DNA of 64,000 nt from an uncultured Gemmatimonadales bacterium (GTDB taxonomy: Bacteria > Gemmatimonadota > Gemmatimonadetes > Gemmatimonadales > GWC2-71-9). The notes beneath the pieces are model-generated. The model ran no database searches, had not been told where the DNA came from, and saw only the letters and a program-made list of their open reading frames with translations. A program made the position numbers and the translations under genes. Location: contig CAVUDL010000018.1 in NCBI GenBank assembly GCA_963740175.1, forward strand, positions 1,381 to 65,380, in the 5' to 3' direction. How positions within the stretch are numbered: the stretch's first letter is position 1; each line of letters starts with the position of its first letter. This document shows positions 46,709 through 47,135 of the stretch, piece after piece.

Positions 46709-46849
46709 TGGTCTCGGTCAACTGCGCGTATCCGCCGTCAGGAACCCCCCACACCGGGGTTCGCGGCTTCCCGGCACCGCAGTCTTCGCCGGGCCCCCAC
46801 AGGCACTTCTCCGCCACTGGCATTAGGCCCAGCCTTGAAATTACTTTTC

Positions 46850-47135
46850 GGGTGTCCTCCAGTAGGGAAGGGAACCCCTGCTATGGCTAGAACATATCCA
46901 ACCGAGGGAGGTGATCCATTCATTTTCGGAGAAACAGGGCTGAAAAGGGTCGATATGTTACCAGGAAATGTTACCAGACCAACGTAGGCCCAACCATGGC
47001 AAAGACCTATAACCGAGGGAGGTGATCCATTGTCTACAGCGTCAAGGGTCGCCTGCGGCCACTAGCAAGCGCTGCAAGCTGAAACCCAGGCGACACTTCG
47101 AACCTGGGGGGGCCGCCAAAGGCGGCCCCTTTTTT
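46850..47135 (+). ncRNA. Candidate small RNA or mini-ORF unit with two extended anti-16S motifs
   Basis: Identical 21-mer AACCGAGGGAGGTGATCCATT at 46900-46920 and 47011-47031; ends in a strong terminator. Confidence 0.55.
47109..47135 (+). terminator. Intrinsic terminator
   Basis: GGGGCCGCC-aaa-GGCGGCCCC-TTTTTT. Confidence 0.9.

Follow-up and report, generated by a model that had tools for sequence, protein, structure and literature searches.

A conserved, single-copy small RNA of Gemmatimonadales with a full-length Shine-Dalgarno tract, a fixed-length mini-ORF and a predicted self-locking fold

A 64,000-nt stretch of DNA from an uncultured Gemmatimonadales bacterium (hereafter the window) was analysed, and a small element at positions 47011-47135 was compared with its relatives. 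The element is a conserved, single-copy and probably independently transcribed small RNA of Gemmatimonadales, and it carries an unusually long Shine-Dalgarno (SD) sequence, a mini open reading frame (ORF) and an intrinsic terminator. Judged by comparative sequence analysis, the feature is real, conserved and under selection, and represents a new Gemmatimonadota RNA family built like the alphaproteobacterial RNA CC2171. As to its mode of action, we lean somewhat towards a translated regulatory RNA that is locked by its own ORF and opened by the ribosome.

The 16S-complementary tract and the conserved core

A repeat search of the window found the 21-mer AACCGAGGGAGGTGATCCATT at 46900-46920 and 47011-47031, as a 100% identical pair with a spacing of 111 nt. 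Exact matches to its 12-nt core, GGAGGTGATCCA, were located at 46907-46918 and 47018-47029 by a motif scan. When up to one mismatch was allowed, the window held four sites for the 12-mer against 0.55 expected, and none of 100 shuffles reached four. Across the whole genome (3.68 Mb, 30 contigs) only three exact sites were present. Two were the copies in the window, and the third was the reverse complement of the 16S rRNA 3′ end on contig C5, indicating that the 12-mer complements the organism's own 16S tail. The duplex of the 12-mer with this tail contains 12 Watson-Crick pairs, or 15 pairs when G-U and A-U pairs from the CGAG just upstream are included, with an energy of -26.5 kcal/mol. The SD usage of the genome was estimated by a crude survey of 3,893 long-ORF starts. 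SD sequences are in use, with a GGAG peak at -12 to -9, and the longest 16S-tail complementarity at any of these starts was 9 nt, seen once. The SD of the element, with 12-15 nt, is an outlier for the genome. An earlier note on this DNA had described the repeated 21-mer, its exact complementarity to the 16S 3′ sequence and a length far beyond that of a normal SD, and all three descriptions agree with these results.

The extent of the element was determined by blastn with 46830-47140 as the query. A match was obtained in 20 of the 24 other genomes of the genus, at 83-95% identity; 16 genomes representing two further families of the order gave none. In all relatives but one, the match was limited to query positions ~162-311, corresponding to 47005/47012-47135 of the window; the sole longer match (G017, query 94-305) did not include the first 21-mer. 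Because the matches cover the second copy up to the terminator only, the conserved element is 47011-47135. Conservation in relatives, a check proposed in the earlier note, holds for this second-copy core. The 11-mer GGAGGTGATCC of the SD was exact in 19/19 loci of relatives, one of which had a 1-nt insertion after the 11-mer. Since these 19 loci were found by whole-element similarity, the invariance of the SD is not an effect of motif selection. Moreover, 35 genus-type sequences were invariant from the SD to codon 10 but for two positions, and variability began abruptly at the third position of codon 10.

A promoter box of the form TAnnnT, referred to as class A, was found 38-43 nt before the SD in 25/25 relatives defined by a regular expression, with TTGC ~23 nt further upstream in nearly all of them. 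Ten sequences were set aside by this pattern, of which five were class A by eye, so that 30 of the 35 genus-type elements are class A. For these, the RNA is predicted to start ~30 nt before the SD and to be ~150 nt long. The class-A box and the conserved terminator support the earlier description of a free-standing, terminator-ended unit.

The distribution of the element in the phylum was examined with an 18-mer composed of the SD, NTG and TCT. It occurred in 59 of 301 Gemmatimonadota genomes, exactly once in each, and in none with the reversed control. The hits came from family f1 (45/125), f2 (9/70) and f6 (4/23), with 0/82 in other families, and the genus of the window was represented by 15 of 18 genomes. 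When the second codon was not specified, the 12-nt SD followed by NTG gave 76 sites in 75 genomes. Of the 17 extra sites five were CTG sites, and the other 12 were fetched; eight were elements with TCC or TCG, two were starts of long ORFs, one was a palindrome and one lay in a repeat array. With these eight, at least 67 of the 71 [T/G]TG sites are elements. The waaA locus was also inspected in 29 further genera of the family. A perfect 12-mer element was present in five and a 10-of-12 variant, GGAGGTGATCTG TTG TCC, in one, and no element was recognised at the other 23 loci. Unpublished genomes contribute to several of these sets: G003 (L017) to a 24-row alignment and to 45 synteny loci, G087 (L191) to the 35 genus-type elements, G206 (L230) to the 29 waaA loci, and G183 and G126 to the 12-mer phylum tally only. 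No claim depends on these genomes alone.

The 12-mer by itself was rejected as a marker of the element. It was present in 260 of the 301 genomes, and among 30 sampled loci 22 were inside ordinary coding sequence (mostly in contexts of the GAG GTG ATC CAG type), five were the 16S gene and three the element. Two unusual sites were also noted. At L249 (G091:C1:392820-393100) the 12-mer and a GTG lie between direct repeats of ~33 nt (..AATGAGGCCGGGGCGACGCCGCCCCGGAAAC..) that are spaced like a CRISPR array, so that a spacer-like segment carries a perfect SD and start. At L241 (G080:C176:3500-3780), GGAGGTGATCCATTGGATCACC, the SD 12-mer directly abuts its near reverse complement between GA-rich and CT-rich flanks; this site is not an element.

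Expression was explored in public sequencing runs. None contained half or more of 46700-47300 in the version of the window. In soil and rhizosphere RNA libraries (X15 and X16, which gave identical records and were counted as one, and X17), contigs of 112-426 nt covered only 47011-47135 of the 601-nt stretch. One of 112 nt was nearly the element alone, and one was 100% identical over 47011-47112 with unrelated sequence upstream. Another joined a class-B-like upstream region (described below) to the core, and a further one extended 159 nt past the terminator. These contigs, which show neither strand nor ends and may include DNA carry-over, give a weak hint that the elements of relatives are transcribed.

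The mini-ORF and its predicted lock

The SD is followed by a UUG start codon, 7 nt after GGAGG, which opens a mini-ORF. In 35/35 genus-type elements the first stop in this frame was at offset 33, in 24 cases as TAG, in 10 as TGA and in one as TAA. This was the only column in which all 35 carried a stop, and the first stops of the other frames were scattered over 19 and 4 distinct positions. Fixed stops were also found in two alphaproteobacterial types described below, at codon 15 in 13/13 Bradyrhizobium-type elements (all three stops in use) and at codon 19 in 11/11 Rhodobacterales-type elements. A stop that is kept through TAG/TGA/TAA changes beside hypervariable sequence is hard to explain without translation, and by this comparative signature the mini-ORF would be translated. 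It had been claimed that no long gene follows either copy of the 21-mer. That is true, and the conserved 11-codon ORF after copy 2 had been overlooked, as had the predicted fold-back of the SD on a 16S-tail look-alike within this ORF, described next.

The folding of the element was then predicted. With 24 sequences, RNAalifold paired AGGUGAUCC-A-UUG, which comprises most of the SD and the start codon, with CAAGGGUCGCCU of codons 5-9 (S2). The single-sequence minimum free energy (MFE) fold of the core agreed with this lock (-58.0 kcal/mol, z = -3.09, 3/200 shuffles as good). The tract GGGUCGCCU of codons 5-9 matches the 16S tail GGAUCACCU except for two A-to-G changes, which convert A-U pairs into G-U pairs. 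By sequence it is an internal look-alike of the anti-SD, and codons 5-9 are predicted to fold back on the SD and the start codon, closing both. With shuffles that preserve mononucleotide content only, the duplex between the SD and the ORF interior reached z < -2 in 35/35 genus-type elements (median z -3.2) and in 13/13 Bradyrhizobium-type elements, in which the partners are GUCACCU and CUGGGAUCGCC. The look-alike was always inside the ORF, a few codons upstream of the stop. In a 20-codon Gemmatimonadota type, the corresponding tract is CAAGCGAUCGCCU at +38 to +50, which is one nt longer and shifts the downstream frame. That S2 is kept at the nucleotide level between the 11- and 20-codon types despite the 1-nt frame difference favours a role at the RNA level.

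The frame of the look-alike was noted separately. It is the same in the 11-codon and 14-codon Gemmatimonadota, the Bradyrhizobium-type and the CC2171-type ORFs, as (A/G)GG GUC GCC, CGG AUU GCC, GGG AUC GCC and UGG AUC .. GCC, and differs in the 20-codon type. Chance, shared ancestry and positional constraint are all possible reasons.

The energetics of the lock were estimated by constrained folding. Opening the SD and the start codon costs ~7-8 kcal/mol (-58.0 or -59.1 free versus -51.0 when blocked). An alternative state, in which S2 pairs with S3, the 5′ arm of a downstream hairpin, was near-isoenergetic in the window when folded from 47011 (-57.9 versus -58.0 for the locked state). Two of the 35 genus-type sequences, L196 and L198, did not match the S3 pattern and were dropped from this comparison. 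In the 33 that were kept, the locked fold was the MFE in 30, and the S2:S3 state was a median of 5.1 kcal/mol above it (range -2.0 to +9.3). The near-isoenergy in the window depends on the 5′ context and is not general, and a balanced two-state switch is therefore not claimed.

The reading that we somewhat prefer, a translated and self-locked RNA opened by the ribosome, would work as follows. Initiation by a 30S subunit on the element would be possible only by displacing the lock. The long SD:anti-SD pairing of -26.5 kcal/mol would pay for this opening, which a normal SD of 5-6 nt barely would; set against a lock cost of ~7-8 kcal/mol, the length of the SD and the lock would explain each other. 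The translating ribosome would then melt the lock and terminate two codons beyond it, and the RNA would switch between two forms, one closed, the other open and loaded with a ribosome. Its output, in a regulatory or sensing role, would lie in its state, its stability or its 30S occupancy, and not in the peptide.

Several observations weigh against this reading. Compensatory change was found in 0/31 predicted pairs of the RNAalifold structure. Covariation is absent from the lock because both of its arms are invariant, so the lock is argued from thermodynamics and invariance, and the invariance could have another cause. The lock at z < -2 was seen in 0/11 Rhodobacterales-type and 0/5 'KARIAGS'-type elements, in just 19/51 of the CC2171 type, and in 3/22 of a mixed bin ('G3') that is contaminated by CC2171-type rows. 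The median gap of 5.1 kcal/mol makes for a weak two-state picture. Synonymous codons preserve Ser at codon 2 (TCT in 59 elements; six TCC and two TCG among the eight further ones), and the N-terminus MS[ST][DE] recurs across clades, so some constraint at the codon or peptide level is possible. The RNA-library support comes from contigs of relatives.

The Ser codons and the recurring N-terminus also speak for a micropeptide gene, that is, a well-translated small mRNA whose 11-aa peptide (19-26 aa in other clades) is functional. The N-terminal motif occurs in Gemmatimonadota and at some gammaproteobacterial loci. Within a clade the ORF does not vary in length, with all three stops in use, and blocks such as RCHLAGIAR or ASDR are retained. 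These blocks, however, are kept at the nucleotide level, and their position is that of the tract predicted to pair with the SD. Third codon positions did not exceed first and second positions in variability in any clade (entropies of 1.01/1.10/1.06 in the 25-codon CC2171 type and 0.90/0.77/0.52 in the 20-codon Gemmatimonadota type), and the synonymous share of codon differences was 5-26% across clades. Within the genus, codons 2-9 varied at three positions only, all non-synonymous (E/A, R/G, S/L), and the last residue was hypervariable (H, R, C, L or N). Other genera of the family showed the same synteny (waaA / element / CPBP / dsbA), the same SD with a UUG UCU start and the same terminator, but a 19-22-codon ORF (MSSDSCIRGSNRASDRLVSC and similar); thus orthologous loci encode the 11-aa peptide in the genus and unrelated peptides of 19-22 aa elsewhere. 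The length of the ORF appears to be kept without purifying selection on the peptide, and the peptide is probably not the product. We therefore consider a functional micropeptide unlikely. Dual-function small RNAs (sRNAs) such as SgrS/SgrT, RNAIII/hld and SR1/SR1P likewise combine a small terminator-ended transcript with a short ORF and conserved structure. The element differs from them in that its peptide is without apparent selection and its SD is a full-length 16S complement, predicted to be locked by an rRNA look-alike.

The earlier note had proposed, as one of its two readings, an RNA that acts as a 30S 'sponge' or STAB-SD-like stabiliser; taken as a non-coding sRNA, it would have an incidental ORF. 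The 12-15 nt of complementarity to the 16S tail and a compact, structured, terminator-ended RNA fit this idea, and this genome alone has two SD tracts. Moreover, the look-alike CC2171 is annotated as an sRNA and was detected by Northern blot, according to the accessible part of a preprint (bioRxiv 10.1101/2022.01.24.477521). However, a pure decoy leaves an optimally spaced start and a fixed stop (TAG/TAA/TGA) unexplained, the SD is predicted to be sequestered and not displayed, and the second SD tract is missing in the relatives examined. A single-copy RNA would also be poorly suited to titrating thousands of ribosomes, unless it were present in very large amounts. A sponge with an incidental ORF is thus improbable as a full account; 30S capture is plausible as a part of the mechanism. 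The comparison with STAB-SD, as in the cryIIIA mRNA of Bacillus, gave a similar picture. Both have a long SD-like tract near the 5′ end, where 30S binding could protect the RNA. STAB-SD, on the other hand, has no used start codon and stands ahead of a long mRNA, whereas the element has an optimally spaced start and a fixed-length ORF and ends ~100-105 nt after the SD. Membership in the STAB-SD class, defined by an SD-like tract unused for initiation with a long mRNA downstream, was rejected.

Locus, 5′ extension and further alternatives

The features of the locus are collected in Table 1. The Kdo transferase gene waaA was the upstream neighbour in 36 of the 45 element loci with any match. A CPBP gene was downstream in 33 of the 45 and absent in 10, where a convergent DsbA-like gene comes next. 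In the window the CPBP gene is split, its N-terminal part being read in the frame of 47155 and its PF02517 part in that of 47441; in relatives it is one intact ORF of 244-267 aa (251 aa in L009). The split is either an assembly indel or a pseudogene.

Table 1. Coordinates of the element and of neighbouring features in the window
Feature	Position	Strand	Basis or remark
Kdo transferase gene waaA, divergent	45347-46708	-	Pfam PF04413, E = 1.5e-38
Putative class-B promoter, TGGCAT (46818-46823), 18 nt, TACTTT (46842-46847)	46818-46847	+	alignment with L010 and L012 (TGGCAT..TAGCTT / TAGGTT)
Lineage-specific class-B leader, beginning GUGUCCUCC (CCUCC box) and holding the duplicated block	46853-47010	+	leaders of relatives
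34-aa MARTY frame MARTYPTEGGDP..., ATG at 46883	46883-46987	+	copy-1 block, without counterpart in the closest relative L005
Copy 1 of the 21-mer, SD-like 12-mer at 46907-46918	46900-46920	+	followed by ATTCAT; no UUG/GUG/AUG at the copy-2 start position
Tandem 13-nt repeat GATATGTTACCAG / GAAATGTTACCAG	46952-46977 (units at 46952 and 46965)	+	similar repeats in class-B relatives
MAKTYNRGR* frame, ATG at 46996, TGA stop inside the SD	46996-47025	+	sequence reading
SD GGAGGUGAUCCA	47018-47029	+	perfect; 15 pairs with the 16S tail including CGAG wobbles upstream
Mini-ORF, UUG + 10 codons + UAG, MSTASRVACGH*	47030-47065	+	stop codon at 47063-47065
S2 'lock' CAAGGGUCGCCU, look-alike of 16S-tail GGAUCACCU	47043-47054	+	predicted pairing with AGGUGAUCC-A-UUG at 47020-47032
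Variable hairpin GCGG..CUGC, stop codon in loop region	47056-47081	+	RNAalifold, MFE
Hairpin CCCAGGCGAC..CCUGGG (CCCAGG/CCTGGG)	47085-47108	+	repeat search, RNAalifold, MFE
S3 CAGGCGACACUU, 5′ arm of the hairpin	47087-47098	+	alternative predicted partner of S2
Intrinsic terminator GGGGCCGCC AAA GGCGGCCCC + U6	47109-47135 (scan: 47106-47132 + T run)	+	terminator scan, folds
CPBP/Rce1-like membrane protease gene	47155-47911	+	Pfam PF02517; split by a frame change near 47400-47441

This arrangement raised the question of whether the element is a leader-peptide attenuator or the 5′ leader of the CPBP gene. The ORF is leader-like, and the terminator behind it lies 20 nt ahead of a co-directional gene, which is the downstream neighbour in most loci as given above, and one RNA-library contig runs on beyond the terminator. 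However, the terminator was predicted in 33-35 of 35 relatives whatever was assumed about the ribosome (RNA free, 30S on the SD, initiation complex or terminating ribosome). Rather than competing with the terminator, the CCCAGG/CCUGGG hairpin stacks on it; a convergent DsbA-like gene is next in the 10 loci without CPBP, and the analogues in other phyla have no common neighbouring gene. Attenuators of the trpL type resemble the element in having a short ORF followed by hairpins and an intrinsic terminator; the element, unlike them, has no regulatory codon runs and no predicted antiterminator, and its downstream gene is not conserved. As no ribosome-dependent alternative of terminator and antiterminator was predicted and the co-directional gene is not conserved, membership in this class was rejected, and an attenuator or CPBP leader is very unlikely.

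The upstream half of the unit in the window was found to be a different matter from the core. Class-B leaders, which replace the class-A promoter, were present in 5 of the 35 genus-type elements (the window, L005, L010, L012 and L184). The extension opens with conserved ..UUUUCGGUGCGUCCUC.. and carries (G)TTACCAG / GAACCAG repeats. The alignment places a putative start near 46853-46856, which would give an RNA of ~283 nt in this genome; a consensus scan at its threshold found no sigma-70-type site. The repeat families D2 (TAGGCCCAGCCTTG / TAGGCCCAACCATG) and D4 (ATTACTTTTCGG / ATTCATTTTCGG) mark a partial tandem duplication that has since diverged. In an alignment of the ATG..ATT blocks of the two copies, 32 of 38 columns were identical, with four mismatches and a 2-nt indel, and the likeness of the two MA(R/K)TY frames results from this partial duplication. 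The second SD block was unique to the window among the genomes examined; the other four of the five class-B elements, including the closest, L005 (91% identical), have one SD. At the position of MAKTY, relatives have MATSYLP* (L005), no ATG (L010) or an in-frame fusion to the main ORF (L012), and the class-A counterpart is MFHLLPRR* or none. Compared in this way, copy 1 and the MARTY/MAKTY frames are part of a lineage-specific extension with a diverged partial duplication. The two ATG frames at 46883 and 46996, the direct repeat, the CCAGG..CCTGG hairpin and the terminator listed in the earlier note were all recovered (repeat scan, fold prediction and terminator scan), but neither its tandem layout nor its mini-ORFs are conserved.

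Another frame was observed in this region. Read from the AUU that closes SD copy 1, a frame of 35 codons, IHFRRNRAEKGRYVTRKCYQTNVGPTMAKTYNRGR* (46918-47025), continues into the MAKTY frame. It ends with the UGA within SD copy 2, 4 nt ahead of the conserved UUG. As a pure reading of the sequence, this layout would permit termination-reinitiation coupling if the AUU were used.

We also asked whether copy 1 (46824-46920 only, not the core) is an assembly artefact. An indel is likely nearby, given that the CPBP gene is split here and intact in relatives. No public run contained half or more of 46700-47300, the DNA run X1 gave nothing there, and the closest relative L005 is without copy 1. However, the copies are identical over 21 nt only and diverged around it, with unrelated sequence after copy 1, which argues against a collapsed or expanded repeat, and an artefact has little probability.

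A type I toxin-like or tandem micropeptide cassette, suggested earlier by the two similar short frames that precede the two 21-mers, can practically be set aside, because these frames lose their ATG, shift frame or fuse in relatives, the tandem layout exists in this genome only, the peptides (MSTASRVACGH, MARTY..., MAKTYNRGR) are short and hydrophilic, with the 11-aa peptide differing between orthologous loci, and no antisense partner was seen, although none was searched for and the sole terminator-like site is on the + strand. Sequestration of the SD is also a feature of type I toxin mRNAs. Those of hok, tisB and aapA1, and the thermometers ROSE and fourU, hold the SD and the start codon in a hairpin, through an internal anti-SD-like tract with G-U pairs, as the element is predicted to do, and must be opened for translation. 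The element differs from them in having no hydrophobic toxin ORF or downstream heat-shock gene, in the location of its predicted lock inside the ORF itself, and in its SD of 12-15 nt.

Elsewhere in the window, a match above threshold to the suhB/mmgR-type sRNA family of Rfam (RF00519, 48.7 bits) was found at 4077-4132 (+). Six tRNA genes (Pro, Arg, Val, Met, Gly, Ala) are clustered at 33365-34246 (-), and a separate tRNA-Arg gene lies at 30262-30336 (-).

Look-alikes in other phyla and implications

A scan of 185,579 species genomes with the 18-mer matched at least 120 stretches. Among the matches listed were Gemmatimonadota, many Alphaproteobacteria, a few Gammaproteobacteria and one member of Planctomycetaceae. 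With NTG TCT being part of the query, all of those listed opened a short 'MS...' ORF of 10-27 codons, barring a few long-ORF exceptions. The 12-nt SD followed by NTG occurred once in four of five alpha- and gammaproteobacterial genomes checked and twice in the fifth. The last of these observations concerns G351, the genome of L052 (Alloyangia), which has two sites with GTG. A comparison of neighbours found no neighbouring gene common to the look-alikes of different phyla. The cross-phylum table was used for examples only, as its crude terminator finder missed 55 of 142 items. Because the 12-mer is imposed by the universal 16S tail, sharing it is no evidence of homology, and an argument for homology to CC2171 on this ground was rejected. 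The look-alikes are either homologues or convergent solutions.

One neighbourhood was conserved within a clade. The Rhodobacterales look-alike, with an 18-codon MSRxxLExGVGT ORF, lies ~58 nt downstream of a co-directional conserved membrane-protein gene (L032, L035, L045, L052, L068, L083, L094, L096 and L098), which may, from its sequence, be YhhQ-like.

The relationship to known RNA families was examined with Rfam. With the CC2171 model (RF01867), whose gathering score is 75 bits, the unit in the window reached 28 bits (E = 0.0016 on 2 kb, 7e-4 genome-wide). The unit thus has no Rfam match at the gathering score, in line with the undescribed system suspected in the earlier note. The 5′ feature of the family, GAAAGGAGGUGAUCCA followed by GUGUCU, has a counterpart in the CGAGGGAGGUGAUCCA UUGUCU of the window, which shares the 12-mer and NUG UCU and is without GAAA, and both end in an intrinsic terminator. 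The closing helix of the family (CAUUGUC/GACAAUG) was aligned to CAGCGUC/GAACCUG of the window, with non-canonical pairs flagged, and is not present. With a score so far below the gathering threshold, membership in CC2171 was rejected. Among the types tested, the 'MSHC...' type alone scored above the threshold of RF01867 (L078, 91.1 bits; L058, 88.5 bits). Rfam gave no match for the Bradyrhizobium-type and Rhodobacterales-type loci, for the three Gemmatimonadota loci tested (L036, L031 and L074), or for a Pseudohongiella and a Planctomycete locus. A 'GGUCGCC' box shared between families was dropped as a signal, being part of a local hairpin in the Rfam structure line of CC2171. The second-best RF01867 match in the genome (C3:32334-32399, 22.7 bits) is a terminator after the end of a cold-shock-like gene and is irrelevant here.

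The likeness in layout is nevertheless close. In CC2171 the 5′ GAAAGGAGGUGAUCCA tract leads into a start at GUG UCU and a short ORF of 21-25 codons ('MSHC...'); the rest of the RNA is a structured body with a terminator, and the genomes checked carry a single copy. An ORF-internal CUGGAUC..GCCUC tract is the predicted partner of the SD in 19 of 51 members. CC2171 differs from the element in the length and sequence of its ORF, in its phylum, and in its 5′ leader (UCAACA..GAAA versus UUCCACC..CCGA in the element). CC2171 was reportedly first described in Caulobacter in 2008. In the accessible part of the preprint cited above (bioRxiv 10.1101/2022.01.24.477521), the Northern detection was made in Methylorubrum extorquens, and no condition affecting CC2171 was identified. 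A literature search found no function assigned to CC2171 and no description of a Gemmatimonadota sRNA in the accessible parts of its sources.

The upstream region showed a further box. An (A)UGUUCCACC(U/C) sequence is conserved 10-20 nt upstream of the SD in the 11-, 14- and 20-codon Gemmatimonadota types (e.g., L018:1456-1505; L037, L110, L074 and L176). Its CACCU could pair with the AGGUG of the SD, which would make it a second, upstream anti-SD-like tract. The alphaproteobacterial types carry UCAACA..GAAA in its place.

The Gemmatimonadota element, CC2171, the Bradyrhizobium-type RNAs ('MSYLKRCHLAGIAR') and the Rhodobacterales-type RNAs ('MSRxxLExGVGT') have in common a single copy, a perfect 16S-tail complement of 12-16 nt, a NUG-Ser start and a terminator, together with a fixed-length ORF of seemingly neutral sequence. 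We raise as a speculative and rather doubtful proposal that they form one functional class across phyla, acting as a dedicated probe of free 30S subunits with an intact, accessible anti-SD tail. In the locked versions, only full-length anti-SD pairing would open the RNA. The RNA might then measure or buffer the capacity for translation initiation, with feedback from its open or closed form on its own stability or on other RNAs.

For annotation, these results add a Gemmatimonadota RNA family without an entry in Rfam 15, with a promoter, a perfect SD, a mini-ORF, a 16S look-alike and a terminator at a fixed locus beside waaA. CC2171 and at least two further alphaproteobacterial RNA types have the same odd layout. 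Long SD pairing is usually thought to slow the clearance of ribosomes. If the predicted lock is false, the outcome is still a re-annotation, in which the tandem anti-16S sites and MARTY frames of the earlier note give way to a single conserved, translated small RNA and a duplication specific to one lineage. If the lock is true, it would explain why selection keeps an SD of 12-15 nt, and the element would be a natural RNA readable only by a 30S subunit that uses its whole anti-SD tail, offering a handle on how initiation capacity is sensed or buffered.

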